This document shows positions 1,731 through 30,627 of a stretch of DNA of 64,000 nucleotides, one piece after another (position 1 is the stretch's first letter; every line of letters begins with the position of its first letter). Under the pieces are notes generated by a model. It was not told the DNA's origin. It saw nothing but the letters and a program-made list of their open reading frames with translations, and ran no database searches. The DNA lies in assembly GCA_039806955.1 (NCBI GenBank), contig JBDHQI010000019.1, forward strand, positions 3,707-67,706. The letters are read 5' to 3'. The position numbers and the translations under genes are program-made. This DNA comes from Verrucomicrobiota bacterium (GTDB taxonomy: Bacteria > Verrucomicrobiota > Verrucomicrobiia > Limisphaerales > JADLHS01).

Positions 1731-4259
1731 ATGCCCGTACGTATTTACGAAATCTCGAAGAAGCTCGGCCTGGAAAGCAAACAGATCCTCGCCAAAGCGA
1801 AGGAATTGGGCATCACCGCTAAAGCCGCCTCCAGTTCGCTCGATAAAATCACCGCGGAATATCTCGAAGAGCAACTTTGCCAGGCGTTCCCCGAAGCCAC
1901 GGCAAAACTGAAGCCGGTCACCACCACCACCACGCCCGAGCCGCCGCCCCCTCCCGTCGAACCGAAAATCGAAATCATCAAAGCACCCGAGCCCCCGCCA
2001 GAAGCGCCGGTCGCCACCGCTCCGGCTCCGGACGGAATCATCCCTACGCCCCCGCCAGCGGAAGACCTCACCCCCATCGTCTCAGAGACACCGACGCCGG
2101 TTGCGCCGACCGCGACCGAACCGGACGCGGCCGCCGGGGCAGATGCGCCCGTTGAAGCGCCACCCGAGAAACCGGTGACCCCGCCGCAACCACCCGAGCC
2201 GCCCAAACCGCAGATCGGACAAAAGGTCGGATTTATTCAATTAGCGCCACGACCTCAACCCCGGTCTGGTGACCGCGGCGCGCGCGGCCCCGGGCGCACC
2301 GGCTCATCTGGGGCCACTGAATTTACCCGACGCGGCGGCGCGCAACCGCCTCAACGCGGCGGCGGCGCTCGCGGAGGCCACACGGAATCCTTCCGGCGGG
2401 GCGCGCCGGGCGGAAAACCGACCAACGGCGCAAAACCCGCCGCCACCAAACCCGTGCTGCCGGCCAACGCGCAAGTCATCACGCTCAAACCGCCAATCGT
2501 CGTGCGCGAACTGGCGGAAGCACTCAAGCAAAAGCCCTTCAAGATCATCGCAGATTTGATGGAAGCGGGGGTCTTCGCCACCGTCAACCAGGCGATCGAG
2601 GAAAAAACGGCGGTGCAGGTTTGCGCCAAATACGGGGTTAAATTCGAAGTTGAAAAACGCGCCAAAGGCGAAGGCCAGGTTCACGCGCCGGTCAAAAAGA
2701 CCGAAATTGATATCGAGGACAAACCCGAACAGCTCAAGCCGCGTCCGCCCGTCGTCACCATCATGGGCCACGTGGACCACGGCAAAACCTCGCTGCTCGA
2801 TGTGATCCGCAAAGCCAATGTGGCCGCCGGCGAAGCGGGCGGAATCACGCAGCGCATCGGCGCTTACACAATTTCATTCCCGCATCCGGAACGCAAAAAC
2901 GAACTGCAGCAGATCACCTTTCTGGACACTCCCGGCCACGCCGCTTTCAGCTCGATGCGCGCGCGGGGGGCGAACGTCACCGATATCGTCGTTCTGGTGG
3001 TGGCCGCGAATGACGGCGTGATGCCGCAAACCCTGGAAGCGTTAAACCACGCCAAGGCGGCCAATGTCCCCATCCTGGTCGCGGTCAACAAATGCGATCA
3101 TCCGAACGCCAATCCGTTGAAGGTGCGCCAGCAATTGCAGGAAAAAGGGCTGACGCCGGATGATTGGGGCGGCGAGACGATTTTCGTGGATTGCTCCGCG
3201 CTGACCAAACAGGGCGTGGACAAACTGCTGGAGATGATTTTGCTCCAGGCCGACTTGCTGGAACTGAAGGCCAATCCCGACCGCAACGCCAAGGGCAACG
3301 TGATTGAATCGGGCATCGAACCCGGCGGCCCCATGGCCACCGTGCTCGTGCGCAAGGGCACCTTGCGCCGGGGCGACGTCATCATTTGCGATGAGTTCTA
3401 CGGCAAGGTGCGAGCGCTCATCAACGATGAAGGCAACCGCCTCGAAGCCGCCACACCGTCCATGGCGGTCCGCGTGCTGGGGCTGAACGGGGTGCCTGAA
3501 GCCGGGGTGGAATTTAGCGTTGTGGACGATGAACGCACGGCTCGCGAGCTGGCCGAGGAACGGCGGCTGGCCGGGCGGGCGGAAGATCTGGAAGCGCGCG
3601 CCAAGGTTACTTTGGAAAACCTGTTTGCCACCCTCGACGAACAACAGAGCAAAATTTTGAAAGTCGTCGTCAAGGCGGACACCCAGGGCTCGGTGGAAGC
3701 GATCGTTGACGCCTTGAACAAAATCGAAAGCGACAAGGTTTCGCTTGAGGTCATCCACAGCGACGTGGGCGCGATCACCGAAAGCGACGTGGCGCTCGCC
3801 TCGGCGTCCAAGGGCATCATTCTCGGGTTTCACACGCGCCTCAACAGTTCGGTGGCGGAGAAGGCAAAGCACGCCAACGTGCAGATCAAACTGTACGCCA
3901 TCATTTATGAACTGATTGATGAAGTAAAAGCCGGCATGGCGGGTTTGCTGGACCCGTTGAGCAAGGAAGTCGTGATCGGCGCCGCGGAAGTGCGCCAGGT
4001 TTTCAATCTCTCCAAAGGCACTCCGGTGGCCGGCTCGATGGTCACCAGCGGCCGCATCGCGCGCGGCAAAGTCCGCGTGCGCCGCCGGAAGGATGTCATT
4101 TACGAGGGCGTCACCCAGTCGCTCCGCCGGTTTCAAGATGAAGTCAACGAGGTGCGCGCGGGCCTCGAGTGCGGCATCCGCATTGAAGGCTTCACCGAAA
4201 TTGCCGAGGGCGACATCATCGAGTGCTACACGGTGGAAAAAGTGGCGCAAAAACTCTGA
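1731..4259 (+). CDS. infB: Translation initiation factor IF-2
   Basis: [14 protein letters not shown] and NKCD GTPase motifs; Pro-rich N-terminal linker. Confidence 0.98.
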
Positions 4260-22464: not shown

Positions 22465-22621
22465 TGTTTGTAGTGCCGTCTGAAGGCGGCACTACAAGCA
22501 GAACGCCCTCGCCGCCTGAAGGCGGCACTACGAACATTTCTGCCGCTCGCAGTCCTGCCTTTGGGCAGATTGAAGTTTCCCTTGTTGTTCGTAGTCCCGG
22601 CTTTAGCCGGGACTGCAAACA
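22465..22621. repeat. Cluster of GTAG-type REP palindromes
   Basis: tgtttgtagtgccgtc-tgaa-ggcggcactacaagca (22465-22500), ccgcctgaaggcggcactacgaaca (22512-22536), tgttcgtagtcccggc-ttta-gccgggactgcaaaca (22586-22621). Confidence 0.8.
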
Positions 22622-22722
22622 TCCAGGTCGAGCGGTTCCGCATTGCTTCCGTTCGCGTGAAATTCCACTATGTTCACGGTGGTAAAAGTGACCAGCGACA
22701 AACTAAAGATCCGATAAACATC

Positions 22723-23580
22723 ATGAAAACAAAATTGATGACAACAATCCTGGCGACAGCCATTGGTTTCAGCTTCGCTCCGGCGAGCTTCGCGCAAGCC
22801 CCGAAAGTGGATTTCCCGGCGCCCAGTCCGACGTCCACGCTGAAGCAGCGCGTCGGTCTGACGGACATTGAAATTGTATATTCGCGTCCGGGAGTAAAAG
22901 ATCGCGAAATTTTCGGCGGCCTCGTGCCGTACGGCAAGGTCTGGCGCACAGGCGCGAATGCCGCAACGCGGATTTCGTTCAGCACGGATGTCAAATTGAA
23001 CGGACACGATGTGCCCGCGGGGACGTATGAACTGTTTACCATTCCCGATGAAAATGAATGGACCATCATCATCAACAAAGGCACGGGGCAATGGGGAGCG
23101 TTTCAGTATGACGAAAAACAGGATTTCCTGCGCTTCAAAGTCAAGCCACGGCAACGCGCACGTTCCCTGGAAACATTCACCATCGGCATCAACAACATCC
23201 GGGACGAAATCGCCACCATCAGTCTGGCCTGGGACAAAACCAGCATTTCAATCAAATTTGAAGTGGATTTGACTTCCAAACTCGTTCCACAAATCGAGGC
23301 CGCCATGGCCGCGCCCGACGGCAAGAAACCCTACTTCCAAGCCGCGACGTTTTATTACAATCACGGGCTCGATTCACAAAAAGCCTTGAAATGGGTTAAT
23401 GCCGCCGTCGCCGAAAATGAAGCGCATTACATCGTGCATTTGAAGGCCAAGGTTCTGGCGCGTCTTGGTGACAAAGCGGACGCCATCGCCGCCGCGAAAC
23501 GCTCGAAAGAACTGGCCATCGCCGCCAAGGACTTCGGCTTCGTCAAGCTGAACGATGATCTGATCGCCAGCTTGCAGTAA
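22723..23580 (+). CDS. DUF2911 domain protein with C-terminal TPR-like helices, exported
   Basis: Signal peptide; PSP..TLKQRVGLTDIEIVYSRP, IFGGLVPYGKVWRTGAN. Confidence 0.88.
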   Translation: MKTKLMTTILATAIGFSFAPASFAQAPKVDFPAPSPTSTLKQRVGLTDIEIVYSRPGVKDREIFGGLVPYGKVWRTGANAATRISFSTDVKLNGHDVPAGTYELFTIPDENEWTIIINKGTGQWGAFQYDEKQDFLRFKVKPRQRARSLETFTIGINNIRDEIATISLAWDKTSISIKFEVDLTSKLVPQIEAAMAAPDGKKPYFQAATFYYNHGLDSQKALKWVNAAVAENEAHYIVHLKAKVLARLGDKADAIAAAKRSKELAIAAKDFGFVKLNDDLIASLQ

Positions 23581-23587
23581 ACGCCTC

Positions 23588-26134
23588 ATGAATCCGACGC
23601 AGGTCCCTGCTCGGTCGGCACGCTGGCTGGGAACGGTGGGAACATTGGGTTGGCCTCTGGCCCTGGCCGGCGCGCTGTGCTGGCCGGGCCGGGCGAAAGG
23701 AACTGAATTGCTCGTCGCTCCCGCGGCCATCAAACAGGAATTGATCCGTTTCAACACGATCGGCAGCGTGTTGTTGATCGCGGCGCATCCTGACGACGAG
23801 AACACGCAGTTGATCACCTACCTATCGCGCGGGCGGGGCTATCGCATGGGTTACCTCTCGCTGACGCGCGGCGATGGCGGACAAAATGTGATCGGACCGG
23901 AGTTTGACGAAAAGCTCGGCGTGGCGCGCACGCAGGAATTACTGGCCGCGCGCCGATTGGATGGCGGCCAGCAGTTTTTCACCCGGGCGATAGATTTTGG
24001 TTACTCCAAAACGCCCGAAGAGACTTTGCGTTTTTGGGACCGGGACGCGGTGTTGGGCGACATTGTGCGCGTCATCCGAAAATTTCAGCCGGACGTAATC
24101 GTGACCCGCTTCCCCATTCCGCCCGGCAGCGGTGGGCACGGACATCACACGGCATCGGGGATTCTGGGGCTGGAAGCGTTCAAGCGGGCGGGCGATCCTA
24201 ACGCCTATCCGGATCAGATCCGAGCCGGGCTCCAACCGTGGTCGGCCAAACGCGTGCTGTGGAATGAATCCAGTTGGCAACGTCGCGATAGTTTGGAAGG
24301 ACCAACCATCCGGGTGGACATCGGCGGCACGGATCCGGTAACGGGCGAGGGCTTTGGGAGCATCGCCGCAGCCAGCCGGGCGCAACACGTCACTCAAGGC
24401 TTTGCCAACTTCAGTCGCGGCAGCGGCAGTGGTCCCACACCGGAAACTTTCCGACTGCTCGCGGGCGATCCCCCCACGAACGATCTGATGGACGGCCTTG
24501 ACCTCACCTGGGCACGCTTTCCGGGCGGAGAAGAAATCGCGCAACGGACGCAAAAAGCAATCGTCGCTTTCGATCCGCAGTCCCCAGCGCGCAGCGTGCC
24601 GGAATTACTGGCCATCCGCGCCCAATTATCCGCGATGCCGGAAAATGCGGTCCTGGCTGACAAACGCGCCCAACTGGATCACATTCTGCAATCCTGTCTG
24701 GGCTTGAGAGTGACCACCACGACAGCGCGACCGGAAGTTGTGCCGGGCGAAACCGTGACCTTGACGCAAACGGTTCAACTGACCAGCGACGTGCCAGTGC
24801 GTTGGGTTGAAACGCGTTTGCGCTACCCGACGCAAACAATCCCGGCACACGCTCCGCTCACTGCTGGAAAGGACCTGCACCAGGAGCTGCGCGTCACCGT
24901 GCCGTTGGACGCGCCATTGACGCAACCTTACTGGTTGCGCGAACCGGGCACGAGCGGCACGTATCGCGTGGACGATCCAAGTTTAATCGGCACGCCGGAA
25001 AACGCGCCGACGTTTCCGCTGGATTACGTTTTCGACGTGGCCGGACAAACGCTAGTCATCCCGGATGAACCACGAGGTCGGGTCAAAGACGGCCAAACGG
25101 AACGGCAACGACGGGTGGATGTGATCCCACCGGTATCGCTGCGTTTCATGGCGGAGGTGAATCTGTTCCATCCCGGCCGCACACGATCCGTCACCGTGAC
25201 AGTGACGGCGGCACGCCCCAACCTCAAAGGCACGGTGCAGCTCGAATCTCCGACCGGCTGGAAAATCACTCCCGCCACGCGCGAGTTTGCGCTCACCACC
25301 ACCGGCGCGAGTCAGTCACTTTCGTTTGAAGTCACCGCACCGACCGGGCCGGCCACCGCACGGCTCACCGTCAGCGCCTCGGTCCAGCATCGGCGCTACG
25401 CCAACCAGCGCATTGAAATCAATTACCCGCACCTCCCCTTCATGCTGCTGCAACCCCCAGCCCAGTCTCGCTTGGTGGCGGTGGATTTTGCGGTGCGCGG
25501 AAAAAATGTCGGTTACGTGCCGGGCGCGGGCGACGCAACCGTGGCCGCACTGGAACAGTTGGGCTATCACGTCACGACCTTGACCGGCAGCGATTTGACG
25601 CCGGAAAACCTGAAAGGGTTGGACACGGTGGTGATTGGGGTGCGCGCATTTAACGAACGTCAGGACCTCGCCTCGCGAATGACCAATTTATTTGATTACG
25701 TTAAAAATGGCGGCACGGTCATCGCGCAATACAACCGCCCGAACGACCTGAAGACGCAGGAGTTGGGGCCGTATCCACTTTCGATTCAAGGTCCGGCGCC
25801 GCAATTGCGCGTGACGGATGAACACGCCCCCGTCACTTTTCTCGACCTGCAATCGCCCGCTTTGACCACGCCAAATCCCATCAGCGCCGCTGATTTCGAC
25901 GGTTGGGTGCAGGAACGCGGTTTGTATTTTCCGAGTCAGTGGGACGAGGAACATTACGACGCAGTGCTGGCGATGGCGGATCCGGGAGAGGCCCCGTTGC
26001 GCGGCAGTTTGTTGGTCGCCAAATACGGTCAGGGATATTACGTCTATACTGCGGTCGCGTTCTTCCGGCAATTGCCACAAGGCGTGCCGGGGGCATACCG
26101 GTTGTTCGCCAATCTGATTTCACTGGGAAAATGA
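23588..26134 (+). CDS. Large exported PIG-L/LmbE family deacetylase/amidase with Ig-like (NEW3-like) and C-terminal GATase-like domains
   Basis: AAHPDDEN and GHGHH metal motifs, LTRGDGGQN, RTQELLAARRLDG; hydrophobic N-terminus. Confidence 0.88.
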   Translation: MNPTQVPARSARWLGTVGTLGWPLALAGALCWPGRAKGTELLVAPAAIKQELIRFNTIGSVLLIAAHPDDENTQLITYLSRGRGYRMGYLSLTRGDGGQNVIGPEFDEKLGVARTQELLAARRLDGGQQFFTRAIDFGYSKTPEETLRFWDRDAVLGDIVRVIRKFQPDVIVTRFPIPPGSGGHGHHTASGILGLEAFKRAGDPNAYPDQIRAGLQPWSAKRVLWNESSWQRRDSLEGPTIRVDIGGTDPVTGEGFGSIAAASRAQHVTQGFANFSRGSGSGPTPETFRLLAGDPPTNDLMDGLDLTWARFPGGEEIAQRTQKAIVAFDPQSPARSVPELLAIRAQLSAMPENAVLADKRAQLDHILQSCLGLRVTTTTARPEVVPGETVTLTQTVQLTSDVPVRWVETRLRYPTQTIPAHAPLTAGKDLHQELRVTVPLDAPLTQPYWLREPGTSGTYRVDDPSLIGTPENAPTFPLDYVFDVAGQTLVIPDEPRGRVKDGQTERQRRVDVIPPVSLRFMAEVNLFHPGRTRSVTVTVTAARPNLKGTVQLESPTGWKITPATREFALTTTGASQSLSFEVTAPTGPATARLTVSASVQHRRYANQRIEINYPHLPFMLLQPPAQSRLVAVDFAVRGKNVGYVPGAGDATVAALEQLGYHVTTLTGSDLTPENLKGLDTVVIGVRAFNERQDLASRMTNLFDYVKNGGTVIAQYNRPNDLKTQELGPYPLSIQGPAPQLRVTDEHAPVTFLDLQSPALTTPNPISAADFDGWVQERGLYFPSQWDEEHYDAVLAMADPGEAPLRGSLLVAKYGQGYYVYTAVAFFRQLPQGVPGAYRLFANLISLGK

Positions 26135-26283
26135 CCAAGCCGCACCCGCCATCTGAATCGCCGTCCGAGGAAGCGCCGAATGTTCCCGGTTTCCGCACCT
26201 GGCGCGGCATTTATGTATTCGTATTGTTTTGGTTCATCGGCTGCGTTGCGCTGTTGGCGTGGCTTTCCCACGCCTTCAAATGA
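26131..26283 (+). CDS. 50-aa single-pass membrane protein
   Basis: MTKP...FRTWRGIYVFVLFWFIGCVALLAWLSHAFK; ATGA overlaps with both neighbours. Confidence 0.75.
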   Translation: MTKPHPPSESPSEEAPNVPGFRTWRGIYVFVLFWFIGCVALLAWLSHAFK

Positions 26284-27995
26284 ACTGGATTGACTGGCTG
26301 GTTCTGGTGGGAACGATGGTGGGCATTGCCGCCTACGGCACCTGGCGCACCCGTCACACGCGCAATCTCAACACGTACCTCAAGGGCAACGTCAACACCG
26401 GTTGGTTGACTATTGGTCTCTCGGTCATGGCCACCCAAGCCAGCACCATCACCTATCTTTCGCTGCCCGGGCAGGCATTTGAAAGCGGCATTGACTTCAT
26501 CCAAAACTATTTCGGCCTGCCGCTCGCGTTGATTGTGGTCTGCATTGTCTTTCTGCCGATCTACCGCAAACTTGGCGTTTATACCGCCTACGAGTATCTC
26601 GGCAAACGGTTTGACGCCAAGACGCGGCTGCTCGGCGCGGCGCTGTTTCTCTTGCAACGCGGTTTGCAGGCGGGCATCACCATTTACGCGCCAGCCATCA
26701 TTCTCTCGACCGTGCTCGGCTGGCGACTGGATTTAACGATTCTGTTCACCGGTCTGCTGGTGGTGGTGTACACCGTCACCGGCGGCAGCGCGGCGGTGAA
26801 CCTGACGCAAAAATGGCAGATGGGCGTGATCTTCGTCGGGATGGTGGCCGCGTTCGTCATTCTGGTGTTGAAACTGCCGCCCGATGCCACGCACATCGCC
26901 GGCGCGTTGGGCAAATTGCAGGGCGTGGACTTCACGCCGGACCTGAAACGCCGTTATACTTTCTGGAGCGGCATCCTCGGCGGATTCTTTCTCTCGCTTT
27001 CCTACTTCGGCACCGACCAATCACAGGTGCAACGCTACATCGGTGGCGCCGCGTTGCGCGAAGGGCGATTGGGTCTGATGTTCAACGCCGTGTTCAAAAT
27101 CCCAATGCAGTTTTTCATCGTCATGCTGGGCGCGCTCCTGTTTGTGTTCTATCAATTCCAGCCAAACACTCCAGTCTTCTTCAACCAAACCGAGTGGCAA
27201 CGTCACGCGCAAGGTTCACAAGGCGCGGAGCTGCGGATGATTGAAGCCAAGTTCGCTGCGGTTCACGCTGAGAAACAGGAGAAAATCCGCGCCTGGGTCG
27301 CCGCGCGTGATGGCGGCGACGCGACGCTCGAAAGCGCGGCCCGGACCGCCATGATCGAATCCCACCAAGCCGCCAACGCGCTGCGCCAACAAGCCCGCAG
27401 CACGTTGCTTGCGCTGGATCCCACGGTGAAAACCAAAGACTCGGATTACGTGTTCATCACTTTCATTCTGACGCAGCTTCCGCATGGCCTGGTCGGTCTA
27501 TTGATCGCCGTGATGTTTGCCTCGGCGTTGTCCTCCAAAGCCGGGGAACTCAACGCGCTCGGCACGACGAGCACGATTGATCTGTGGCGGCACTTCCGCC
27601 CCCTGGCCGTTCACGATGAAGCGCGCAACGTGCGCAATGCCAAATGGTTCACCGCGCTGTGGGGCGTTTTCGCCATTGGTTTTGCCCTGTTCATCGGCTT
27701 TGCCGAAAACCTGATTGAAGCTTTGAACATCGTGGCTTCCATTTTTTATCCGTCGCTATTGGGTGTATTTTGCGTGGCGTTCTTCTTCAAACGCGTCGGC
27801 GGTTCGGCGGTGTTCGGGGCCGCCATCGTCGCGCAACTGCTCGTCTTGCTCATCTTTTTCTGCGGCAAAATATTTCCCGCCCACGAAATCGGCTACCTCT
27901 GGCTGAATCCCATCGGTTGCGCCGGTTGCATCGGCTTCAGTCTGCTCTTTCAATGGTTATTGGGTCGCCGCAATGCCGCGATCGCCAAATCATGA
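26280..27995 (+). CDS. Sodium:solute symporter (SSS)
   Basis: GLSVMATQAS.ITYLS.PG, YFGTDQSQVQRY, about 13 TM helices. Confidence 0.93.
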   Translation: MNWIDWLVLVGTMVGIAAYGTWRTRHTRNLNTYLKGNVNTGWLTIGLSVMATQASTITYLSLPGQAFESGIDFIQNYFGLPLALIVVCIVFLPIYRKLGVYTAYEYLGKRFDAKTRLLGAALFLLQRGLQAGITIYAPAIILSTVLGWRLDLTILFTGLLVVVYTVTGGSAAVNLTQKWQMGVIFVGMVAAFVILVLKLPPDATHIAGALGKLQGVDFTPDLKRRYTFWSGILGGFFLSLSYFGTDQSQVQRYIGGAALREGRLGLMFNAVFKIPMQFFIVMLGALLFVFYQFQPNTPVFFNQTEWQRHAQGSQGAELRMIEAKFAAVHAEKQEKIRAWVAARDGGDATLESAARTAMIESHQAANALRQQARSTLLALDPTVKTKDSDYVFITFILTQLPHGLVGLLIAVMFASALSSKAGELNALGTTSTIDLWRHFRPLAVHDEARNVRNAKWFTALWGVFAIGFALFIGFAENLIEALNIVASIFYPSLLGVFCVAFFFKRVGGSAVFGAAIVAQLLVLLIFFCGKIFPAHEIGYLWLNPIGCAGCIGFSLLFQWLLGRRNAAIAKS

Positions 27996-28768
27996 CCACC
28001 GCCCCGATCATTTGTTTCGGCCAGCAACCCTGTGGATTTTTTCCGCGACGCTTTCTCTTCGCCAAAATCCAGACGGCCCGCCGGCTCCAGTTGGAGATTG
28101 GCGGTGAAATCGTGTTCTTCTATCACGACAGCGATCATGACCCGCGTGAGACGCGCACCCGGTTGCGACATCGCAAAACCAACGAACTGGCGCACCTGAA
28201 TTTCAGCGTGACGAACAAAATTCAACGCAAATTCGCGCCGTTGTTTTTGAAACGCATCACTCCGGACTGGCCGCACAAAACGGCGGCGCAACTGCCCAAT
28301 TACGTCGGACACGATTTGATGGATTTATTTCAATCCGTGGCGGCGGATAACGTGGCGGATTTCTGTCTCGAGATGTACCGGCGGCTGGGTTTGCTGGACG
28401 GCATTCGCCTGGTGCGCTCAGGCGATCCGGCCGTGCGCCGGGCCGCCTGTGAGATCGAGGACCGCTTCGTGGATGTGCCCTATGAGGGCGAAATCGTCCG
28501 CGCGCGCCTCACCCCCGAAGGGTTTCAACTTCACGAGGGCGGCAATTCCTTCTTGCACTTCCCGATCACCGCTTTTACGAAAGAACAGGTCAGCCCGACG
28601 CGCGACAGCCGTTTGCGTTGGATGCAATCGGTCGTGCCTTGCACGCATTACATCGCCGGCATGGGCGAACAAAATTATTTGCATCCGGAGGAAACGCCGG
28701 AGATTACTTTCGTGAAGCGCGATTTTATTGAACGTTCTGATGAGGCCTATACCGAAATCTCCCGCTAA
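27992..28768 (+). CDS. Short BshC-like putative cysteine-adding enzyme (258 aa)
   Basis: FGQQ, FFYHDSDHD, QVSP..SRLR and HYIAGMGEQNY match recalled BshC motifs in order; adjacent to bshB1 and bshA. Confidence 0.65.
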   Translation: MTTAPIICFGQQPCGFFPRRFLFAKIQTARRLQLEIGGEIVFFYHDSDHDPRETRTRLRHRKTNELAHLNFSVTNKIQRKFAPLFLKRITPDWPHKTAAQLPNYVGHDLMDLFQSVAADNVADFCLEMYRRLGLLDGIRLVRSGDPAVRRAACEIEDRFVDVPYEGEIVRARLTPEGFQLHEGGNSFLHFPITAFTKEQVSPTRDSRLRWMQSVVPCTHYIAGMGEQNYLHPEETPEITFVKRDFIERSDEAYTEISR

Positions 28769-29477
28769 ACCCGCGCCGCTGCTGGTCTTCGGCGCGCACC
28801 CGGACGACATTGAATTCGGCTGCGGTGGCGTGGTCGCTTTGGAAACCCGACGCGGCCGCCCGACGCATCTGGTGGTCTGCTCCCGAGGCGAAGCGGCCAC
28901 GCACGGCACGCCCAAACAACGCGCGCGAGAAGCGCAACAGGCGGCGAAAATTTTGGGCGCCACGCTCGAGTGGATAACGCTGGACGGCGATGCGCATCTG
29001 GAATTAAAGGTCGCGCACACGATCAAGCTGGCGAAGCTCATTCGCCAACACCGCCCCGGCCTCGTGCTGGCCCCCTGCCCCGTCGAAAATCAGCATCCCG
29101 ATCACGACCGGCTCGGCAAATTGGTGCGCGATGCGGCGCGACTGGCGCGTTACGGCGGCGTCAAGGAATTGCGCCGCCAATTGCCCCACCGCATCGGACA
29201 ATTGCTCTTTTACGCGTTGACGGAAGAAGTGCAGGCCGTCGCGGGCACCGCCGTGTTGATAGATATTTCCGATCCGGCGCTCGTTGCCACCTGGACCCAA
29301 GCCATGCAAGCCCACGCTTCCCAAACGGCGACCCGACGTTACGTGGAAATGCAGCTTCTGCGCGCCCGGCTGAACGGCCATCGCGCCGGTGTCGAATACG
29401 CGCAGGCGCTGTTTCCCAACGACCCGCCGCTCTTGGAATCATTAACGCCGCTGGAACGTGGCGCGCGTCATTTTTGA
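28740..29477 (+). CDS. bshB1: GlcNAc-malate deacetylase BshB1-like
   Basis: FGAHPDDIEFGCGG, SRGEAATHGT...RAREA, HPDH; directly before bshA. Confidence 0.82.
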   Translation: MRPIPKSPAKPAPLLVFGAHPDDIEFGCGGVVALETRRGRPTHLVVCSRGEAATHGTPKQRAREAQQAAKILGATLEWITLDGDAHLELKVAHTIKLAKLIRQHRPGLVLAPCPVENQHPDHDRLGKLVRDAARLARYGGVKELRRQLPHRIGQLLFYALTEEVQAVAGTAVLIDISDPALVATWTQAMQAHASQTATRRYVEMQLLRARLNGHRAGVEYAQALFPNDPPLLESLTPLERGARHF

Positions 29478-29478
29478 C

Positions 29479-30627
29479 ATGGTGGAGCGTCCCTTAAAAA
29501 TTGGCATTACCTGTTATCCGAGTGTCGGCGGCAGCGGCGTGCTGGCCACTTTGCTTGGCGAAGAACTGGCGCAACGCGGCCACGAGGTGCATTTCATCAG
29601 TTACGAACGTCCGTTTCGTCTGCCCGAAAACGCGCCGCGCGTTTACTTCCATCCCGTCGTCATCAATGACTACGAACTGTTCAAGTATCCGGACTACACC
29701 CTGCCGCTCTCCGTGCGCATGGCGGAGGTCAGCCAACAATATCAGTTGGATATTTTGCACGCGCATTACGCCGTGCCGCACGCCACCGCCGCGCTGCTCG
29801 CGAACGCCATGCTGCCCGCTGGCGCGCGGCCCCGCATCATCACCACCGTGCATGGCACCGACACCACGCTGCTCGGAAATGATCCCGGCTATCGTCCGGC
29901 GATTTATCACGCTCTGGCCAACTCGGACGTTGTCACCGCTGTCTCCAATCATCTGCGCACAGAAACCCAACGCGTCATCGGGTTCAACGGCCACATCGAA
30001 GTAATCCACAATTTCTACGGCCCGCTGCCGCCACAACGCGCTCCGGAAACCATGCGGCGCGACCTGGGGTTGCGCGATGAAATCCTGATCTTTCACGCCT
30101 CAAACCTGCGGCAAGTGAAACGCATTGACGTGCTGCTGGCCGCCGTCGCCCAGCTTCGTGATCGCCAGGACTGGAAGTTGCTCATCCTGGCCGGTGCGCC
30201 GTTTGCGCCCTACGCCCAAGACTTGCAACGCCTCGGCCTGACCGACCGCGTCATCGTGCGCGAAAAGGTTCTGGACGTGGAAGATTACCTGCAAATCGCC
30301 GACCTCGGATTGTTCACCTCGGACACGGAAAGTTTTTGTCTGAGCCTGCTGGAAGCCATGTGCTTTGGCTGTCCCAGCGTCTCGACGCGCGTTGGAGGCA
30401 TCCCGGAAGTGGTCGAAGACAATATCTCAGGTTTGTTGTCTCCCGCCGGTGACGCCGACGCCTTGGCTCAAAACCTCCGACGTTTGCTCTCCGATGCCGT
30501 GGAACGGACCAAACTGGGTAGCGCGGCAAAAGCCCGCGCGCAGGAACGCTTCTCCGCGGAAGTCATCGTGCCGCAGTATGAGGCGCTATACCGCCGCGCG
30601 TTGGAAAACCAACCCAAACACAGTTAG
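29479..30627 (+). CDS. bshA: N-acetyl-alpha-D-glucosaminyl L-malate synthase
   Basis: KIGITCYPSVGGSG, HAHYAVPHA, TTVHGTD, ESFCLSLLEAM. Confidence 0.93.
   Translation: MVERPLKIGITCYPSVGGSGVLATLLGEELAQRGHEVHFISYERPFRLPENAPRVYFHPVVINDYELFKYPDYTLPLSVRMAEVSQQYQLDILHAHYAVPHATAALLANAMLPAGARPRIITTVHGTDTTLLGNDPGYRPAIYHALANSDVVTAVSNHLRTETQRVIGFNGHIEVIHNFYGPLPPQRAPETMRRDLGLRDEILIFHASNLRQVKRIDVLLAAVAQLRDRQDWKLLILAGAPFAPYAQDLQRLGLTDRVIVREKVLDVEDYLQIADLGLFTSDTESFCLSLLEAMCFGCPSVSTRVGGIPEVVEDNISGLLSPAGDADALAQNLRRLLSDAVERTKLGSAAKARAQERFSAEVIVPQYEALYRRALENQPKHS

Follow-up and report, generated by a model that had tools for sequence, protein, structure and literature searches.

The 64,000-nt stretch of DNA analysed here (the window; positions 3,707 to 67,706 of contig JBDHQI010000019.1, from a Verrucomicrobiota bacterium of the Limisphaerales, assembly GCA_039806955.1) carries a forward-strand gene at 27992..28768 for a 258-residue protein. 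This protein is most likely a small and highly diverged homologue of the BshC catalytic domain, which is Rossmann-like and of the class I aminoacyl-tRNA-synthetase type; BshC itself is the putative cysteine-adding enzyme of bacillithiol synthesis. In Limisphaerales/Pedosphaera-like Verrucomicrobiota, the short protein, pared down to the catalytic core, probably adds cysteine in a bacillithiol-type pathway, and it appears to replace full-length BshC in a group of soil and wastewater Verrucomicrobia. It is tied to BshC by its fold, by profile-level homology, by roughly half of the core positions that are conserved in BshC, by its place in the operon and by a mutually exclusive distribution.

Sequence scans of Pfam, NCBIfam and the Protein Data Bank (PDB), the last with both phmmer and hmmsearch, do not recognize the short protein; sequence-only matches to nitrogenase, a response regulator and L28, all at E>0.1, are noise. 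An AlphaFold2 model built on a 30-sequence alignment has a predicted local distance difference test score (pLDDT) of 87.9 and a predicted template-modelling score (pTM) of 0.87, and its only Foldseek match in the PDB at E≤1e-3 is the B. subtilis BshC structure 4WBD (E 2.1e-8, TM 0.62 normalized to the query). VIA-align, run independently of Foldseek over 48,161 representative chains, also places 4WBD first (Z 19.1, root-mean-square deviation (rmsd) 2.9 Å, 242 of 258 residues aligned, 15% identity), followed by class I LysRS at Z 13.7 and by other class I synthetases and nucleotidyltransferases at Z≤8.6; MshC (3C8Z) scores Z 7.5. The structural match to BshC expected in a preliminary description of this DNA is therefore present, as the clear top match in both searches.

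Profile comparison leads to the same protein: when hhalign compares the short family with a set of 30 BshC sequences, i.e., the two canonical Verrucomicrobiota BshC proteins and their relatives, the probability is 93.5% (E 2.4e-7) over 225 columns, with five motifs collinear and residues 4-231 aligned to BshC 86-348 (in the numbering of canonical P0274). The result is 92.8% (E 4.1e-7) with a 115-sequence family alignment and 87.6% (E 3.5e-6) in a separate run with -M first; in a control, the short-family profiles match the genome's own CysRS with 1.1% and 0.3% probability. In an ESM Atlas feature search, BshC Rossmann-domain clusters rank right after the protein's own clusters, with a score of 0.91. 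The resemblance of the short protein to BshC is far above chance.

The gene is an uninterrupted 258-codon open reading frame (ORF) running from ATG at 27992 to TAA at 28766-28768, and its translation contains FGQQ (residues 9-12), AKIQTARRL (24-32), FFYHDSDHD (42-50), QVSPTRDSRLR (199-209) and YIAGMGEQNY (220-229), in the order claimed in the preliminary description. The BshC motifs given there are real as well: the consensus of the 30-sequence BshC alignment reads VVTGQQAG, YKxxTxIxLA, VFWxAxEDHD, FSxNVxLRPV and AYVAGPGExxY. The aligned range contains 37 BshC columns whose residue is conserved in 27 or more of the 30 sequences, and the short family shares the consensus residue at 19 of these (GQQ, G, K, A, F, D-H-D, E, G, F, G, S, R, G, E, Y), including K25, D48-H49-D50, E53, S201, R207, G223, E226 and Y229 of the short protein; several others are changed conservatively, e.g., W to F and F to Y. 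The G10-Q11-Q12 loop after strand 1 (28019..28027, forward strand, as are all features below) aligns with the invariant BshC GQQ (P0274 G92-Q94) and is kept in 23-24 of 25 short-family and 30 of 30 BshC sequences. The H45-D-S-D48-H49-D50-P-R-E53 motif (28124..28150) aligns with BshC D136-H137-D138...E141, and its D, H, D and E are each found in 23-24 of 25 short-family and 29-30 of 30 BshC sequences. S201-P-T-R-D-S-R207 (28592..28612) aligns with BshC S318...R324, with the serine position kept in 22 of 25 vs. 29 of 30 and the arginine position in 24 of 25 vs. 30 of 30 sequences. Finally, Y220-I-A-G223-M-G-E226-Q-N-Y229 (28649..28678), which follows the last core strand, aligns with BshC YVAG340-P-x-E343-x-x-Y346; its G, E and Y occur in 25, 25 and 24 of the 25 short-family sequences, respectively, and each in all 30 BshC proteins.

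In canonical P0274, Pfam delineates a Rossmann-like domain (15-368) and the coiled-coil domain PF24850 (370-522). The alignment sets the limits of the short protein: it begins at the first core strand, has a connective insert ~37 residues shorter than that of BshC and ends one strand past GxGE..Y, at the boundary of the BshC coiled-coil domain. The N-terminal ~85 residues of BshC are absent (GQQ lies at 10-12 instead of 92-94), and PF24850, with its P...QER..N motif, is entirely missing. The earlier statement that the protein retains only the Rossmann core is thus close to correct, in that the match spans BshC ~86-348, and has to be amended for the reduced insert and the lost N-terminal segment; likewise, the stop does follow the last motif at a short distance, which is 29 residues and not the ~35 given before. 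Several residues conserved in the short family have no BshC counterpart: C125 is invariant in 115 sequences, and C8, C14, C153, C217 and H219 are strongly conserved. They may include a metal site or a catalytic thiol; one candidate is a CysRS-like zinc site made up of C8, C217 and H219. Because no family model matches it and two BshC domains are missing, the short protein lies outside BshC as the curated family is drawn and is instead a remote homologue occupying BshC's place.

At 258 residues, about half the length of BshC (520-560 residues), the gene could be taken for what truncation or a frameshift has left of a full-length bshC, i.e., a pseudogene. A word-indexed search of 5.8 billion proteins returns 6851 homologues at E≤1e-3; the best 120 of these are 250-285 residues long and 71-95% identical, are without a name or called "hypothetical protein", and are from Verrucomicrobiota wherever labelled. 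These same-length homologues, numbering in the thousands, are strongly conserved, with a mean column identity of 70% in the 115-sequence alignment, and the overlap of the stop with the next gene is conserved too. When 1.84 billion representatives of 50%-identity clusters are searched with an HMMER profile, 259 matches result, mostly fragments of the same family, along with a few divergent members of full length that are 33-43% identical (P0131, P0133, P0136, P0139 and P0169). Longer forms were sought among 1526 candidates, and the 13 matches are all singletons joined to neighbouring SSF, PIG-L or GT4 genes, none with a BshC domain; they were rejected as full-length versions or reliable Rosetta-stone fusions and are regarded as read-through or assembly artefacts, with P0405 visibly frameshifted. 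The genome has no coiled-coil remnant: PF24850 reaches no more than 12.7 bits, in an unrelated 852-residue frame, which also disposes of a split gene with the coiled-coil domain encoded elsewhere in the genome. The pseudogene explanation, to which we assign next to no probability, is refuted, and the proposal that the gene is not a frameshifted fragment holds; its homologues are short, not full-length BshC.

The short gene lies in a cluster with genes for the other proposed steps of a bacillithiol-type pathway. Its stop is 29-41 nt inside the next ORF, for which TTG at 28728 and ATG at 28740 are possible starts and which encodes a PIG-L family deacetylase (28740..29477; PF02585 81.2 bits, cut-off 28.2). 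This deacetylase is closest to BshB1, so its earlier naming as bshB1 is right as to the nearest relative; its TIGR04001 score of 137 bits falls short of the equivalog cut-off of 182.5, and the bshB1 genes beside canonical bshC in two other genomes, G247 and G070, score 212 and 207 bits. The deacetylase gene abuts a GT4 glycosyltransferase gene (29479..30627; ORF opening with GTG at 29458) whose product is BshA, N-acetyl-alpha-D-glucosaminyl L-malate synthase: it scores 399.4 bits with TIGR03999 (equivalog cut-off 273.7) in a match that covers positions 1-374 of the 375 in the model.

Across 301 genomes sampled from the phylum, BshA is found over its cut-off in 22, the short family in 20 (E≤6e-111) and canonical BshC in 2. 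The 22 BshA genomes are exactly the 20 with the short family plus the two with canonical BshC, so that each carries one form and no genome carries both. A 19-bit match (E 7.3e-4) in G241, a BshA-negative genome, was treated as noise. The two canonical genomes show the order methyltransferase-bshC-bshB1-bshA, from which it follows that the short gene sits where bshC sits. The methyltransferase gene of these canonical loci is S-adenosylmethionine (SAM)-dependent, overlaps the bshC start (L013:672-1469 and L014:723-1481), which hints at an NmbA-like N-methyl-bacillithiol synthase, and has only generic methyltransferase matches.

Linkage was followed over 171 related loci from species genomes and metagenomes, 99 of which extend at least 2.6 kb downstream. 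The order short gene-bshB-bshA occurs in 71 of the 99, and bshA lies downstream of the short gene in 95; in 24 loci, nearly all from a ~59%-identical subfamily, bshA follows with no bshB between, two loci have bshB but no bshA, and two have neither.

The genome that contains the window is 94.65% complete. The preliminary description had asked for a full-length bshC elsewhere in it, and there is none: TIGR03998 and PF10079 find no match, and PF24850 finds none over its cut-off. A TIGR03447 search detects one CysRS-like gene, the housekeeping CysRS on contig C44, and no MshC. The genome also has no glutathione synthase (gshB) and no GCS2-type ligase.

Together with the fold, these data lead us to infer the catalytic activity, donor, acceptor and product of the short protein. 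BshA would join UDP-GlcNAc and L-malate into GlcNAc-malate, the adjacent PIG-L deacetylase would take off the acetyl group, and the 258-residue enzyme would attach cysteine to the freed 2-amino group of GlcN-malate. The cysteine would come from the same activated form that canonical BshC uses, and the enzyme would work without the N-terminal segment and the coiled-coil dimerization domain of BshC.

Several observations weigh against this scheme. The short protein does not match TIGR03998 or PF10079 at E≤1 in protein scans, nor does a six-frame search of the whole genome with these models return anything at E≤10, and no BshC-like protein of ~520-560 residues appears among the best 150 of the 259 HMMER profile matches. 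Twelve columns of BshC that reach this level of conservation, 27 or more of 30 sequences (R54, L61, P362, R367, T371, P481, Q486, E487, R488, N491, G500 and H518) fall in parts that the short protein lacks, with P481, Q486-E487-R488 and N491 belonging to the BshC C-terminal domain; should any of them be catalytic, the short protein would have to operate in another way or depend on a partner. The downstream deacetylase is under the BshB1 cut-off, and 24 of the 99 loci lack bshB beside the short gene. Because the genomes are related (16 of the 20 short-family genomes belong to one family), the either/or pattern reflects few independent events. YtxJ and BrxA/B are not detectable in the window genome and YpdA/Bdr does not exceed its cut-off, although these are the usual bacillithiol accessories; in the search controls, some bacillithiol producers also lack the YtxJ, BrxA/B or YpdA families. 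The thiol itself is a prediction in carriers of the short gene, and the notion that the protein works like BshC inherits the uncertainty of a reaction that has never been reconstituted in vitro.

Upstream of the short gene, two further genes complete a conserved five-gene block. A sodium:solute symporter (SSF; 26229..27995, PF00474 121.7 bits, TIGR00813 203.6 bits) overlaps the short gene by four nucleotides (TGA of the symporter and ATG of the short gene in ATGA, 27992-27995). Among the 120 loci that extend 2 kb or more upstream, 116 have the symporter as the immediate upstream neighbour in the same orientation. By eye, a charged helical insert of ~80 residues (~residues 320-400) separates the two Pfam-matched stretches of this symporter. 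The block begins with an 848-residue protein (23588..26134) that has an N-terminal PIG-L deacetylase/amidase domain (PF02585 57.8 bits); its best NCBIfam match is Mca, at 43.9 bits far under cut-off. It also has an NEW3/NPCBM-associated domain and, by eye, a signal-peptide-like N-terminus. The 848-residue protein is encoded in 21 of the 301 phylum genomes, namely the 20 with short BshC and G247, which has canonical BshC, and is absent from all 279 BshA-negative genomes. Possible roles are those of an amidase acting on bacillithiol conjugates or of an exported deacetylase linked to the pathway.

Two groups of loci depart from the arrangement in the window. In L097-L149 and L174, a metagenome subfamily with ~56-61% identity, bshA starts 0-15 nt after the short gene, bshB is absent from the locus, and the 848-residue PIG-L protein and symporter genes are still upstream. 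L096, a 41%-identical member and the most divergent one for which neighbouring genes are available, is one of the two loci with neither bshB nor bshA, with no bshA within 6 kb; here (L096:5207-7313) the short gene lies between an upstream GNAT acetyltransferase gene and a convergent PIG-L gene, and is placed between gatA and gatB. The GNAT gene presumably recalls MshD of the mycothiol pathway.

Divergence of this extent, with 15% identity to 4WBD and about half of the conserved core columns changed, could also signify, in line with the different donor or product suggested in the preliminary description, a BshC-fold ligase with altered chemistry, which would attach something other than cysteine, use another donor or modify another amino-sugar acceptor to make a bacillithiol variant. 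Such a ligase would fit the family-specific cysteines and histidine (C125, C8, C14, C153, C217 and H219), the deacetylase that misses the BshB1 cut-off, the GNAT acetyltransferase directly upstream of the divergent member, and the failure to find canonical bacilliredoxin or Bdr genes in the window genome. We nevertheless regard it as unlikely: BshA, with 399 bits against a cut-off of 273.7, points to the usual GlcNAc-malate scaffold, the short protein has kept those BshC positions that are most conserved, and the either/or replacement of canonical BshC is most simply explained by the same function. Another possibility takes in the upstream genes as well and makes the short enzyme the core of a different thiol system, either a make-and-recycle loop with the symporter and the 848-residue PIG-L protein or a new bacillithiol variant. 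In the loop, the apparently exported PIG-L protein would cleave conjugates or precursors outside the cytoplasm, the symporter would re-import the amino-sugar scaffold, and the short enzyme would re-attach cysteine; in the variant, the family-specific Cys and His residues would stand in for the missing BshC domains. A different thiol system of this kind, which we think rather unlikely, would define a minimal catalytic unit and possibly point to the activated cysteine donor.

The same upstream genes could be read as a sign that the short protein is not a ligase at all and instead binds nucleotides through its Rossmann-like fold as a regulator, a sensor or a helper of the symporter and the 848-residue PIG-L protein, with cysteine added by another enzyme or not at all. 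Its most constant neighbour is indeed the symporter, the conserved block includes the large PIG-L protein, and the activity of BshC itself is unproven in vitro. Against this, the fold match is specific to BshC, at Z 19.1 vs. 6.5-8 for generic nucleotide-binding HUP proteins, and the BshC signature residues are kept; furthermore, the TIGR03998, PF10079 and MshC/CysRS searches reveal no other candidate ligase in the genome, and the short protein is present in 20 of 20 genomes that have BshA without BshC. A non-ligase role is thus very unlikely.

The proposed role as the cysteine-adding enzyme is best placed among known systems by comparison with BshC (YllA; 4WBD, PF10079 plus PF24850, TIGR03998). 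The two share the Rossmann-like core with its connective insert, collinear and conserved GQQ, K, DHD-E, S...R and GxGE..Y signatures, the operon position upstream of bshB and bshA, and co-occurrence with bshA and bshB, all 20 short-family genomes having BshA over cut-off. They differ in length (258 vs. 520-560 residues, with ~15% identity), in the loss of residues 1-85, of a ~37-residue internal segment and of the whole coiled-coil domain, and in the conserved cysteines and histidine peculiar to the short family, which no BshC family model matches. Class I LysRS (1IRX), the second-best fold match (VIA-align Z 13.7, 210 residues, rmsd 3.3 Å; Foldseek E 4.7e-3), belongs to the same HUP/Rossmann class, but phmmer and hmmsearch against the PDB find no relation at the sequence level, the short protein lacks an anticodon-binding domain and, by inspection, HIGH and KMSKS, and its context is thiol biosynthesis, not translation. 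MshC (3C8Z, TIGR03447), the ATP-dependent Cys:GlcN-Ins ligase of mycothiol synthesis, performs an analogous step, the addition of cysteine to a deacetylated amino sugar, which is likewise supplied by a GT4 glycosyltransferase and a PIG-L deacetylase; by contrast, the similarity of the short protein to MshC and CysRS is one of generic fold only (Z 7.5 for MshC; 1.1% hhalign probability against the genome's CysRS).

According to two reviews (PMC4360819, PMC5790435), nobody has yet demonstrated activity of BshC in vitro or identified the activated donor of cysteine, in agreement with the earlier remark that the reaction is hard to reconstitute; the reviews also describe a BshC that dimerizes via the coiled-coil domain, with solvent-exposed active sites. 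The BshC step is thus the only one in bacillithiol synthesis for which the reaction has yet to be established. A natural half-size enzyme that keeps 19 of 37 core positions would indicate that parts of BshC, the coiled-coil and N-terminal segments, are dispensable in vivo, and would offer a smaller target for biochemistry and crystallography. Hiras et al. (2018) place Verrucomicrobia among lineages without a documented or predicted low-molecular-weight thiol (PMC6282198); if the proposed pathway operates, a bacillithiol-type thiol is made by a lineage that is abundant in soil, freshwater and wastewater. The 2025 NmbA survey demanded similar length and >80% coverage relative to C. tepidum BshC (PMC12719100) and, because of these filters, could not find the short family. 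Our literature search, which covered articles and not supplementary files, turned up neither a short BshC nor any description of bacillithiol genes in Verrucomicrobiota. The short family is a previously unrecognized, unannotated relative of BshC.

Some minor features of the locus and its relatives deserve mention. A DUF2911 protein gene (22561-23580, 197.8 bits) ends 7 nt before the 848-residue PIG-L gene and may be in the same transcription unit. Among the 80 best species-genome loci (L015-L094), 62 bear Verrucomicrobiota-lineage labels; the other 18, labelled Obscuribacterales/Cyanobacteria, Planctomycetota, Bifidobacteriaceae, Betaproteobacteria, plain "bacterium" and others, are 66-76% identical and have the five-gene block in common, and represent either mislabelled bins or transfer of the whole cluster. 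In the ESM Atlas, Bacteroidota clusters of 291 and 337 residues carry PF10079, with a coiled-coil domain in just 33% of the second cluster; the proteins are fragments or else additional short forms of BshC, close enough for the Pfam model to match.

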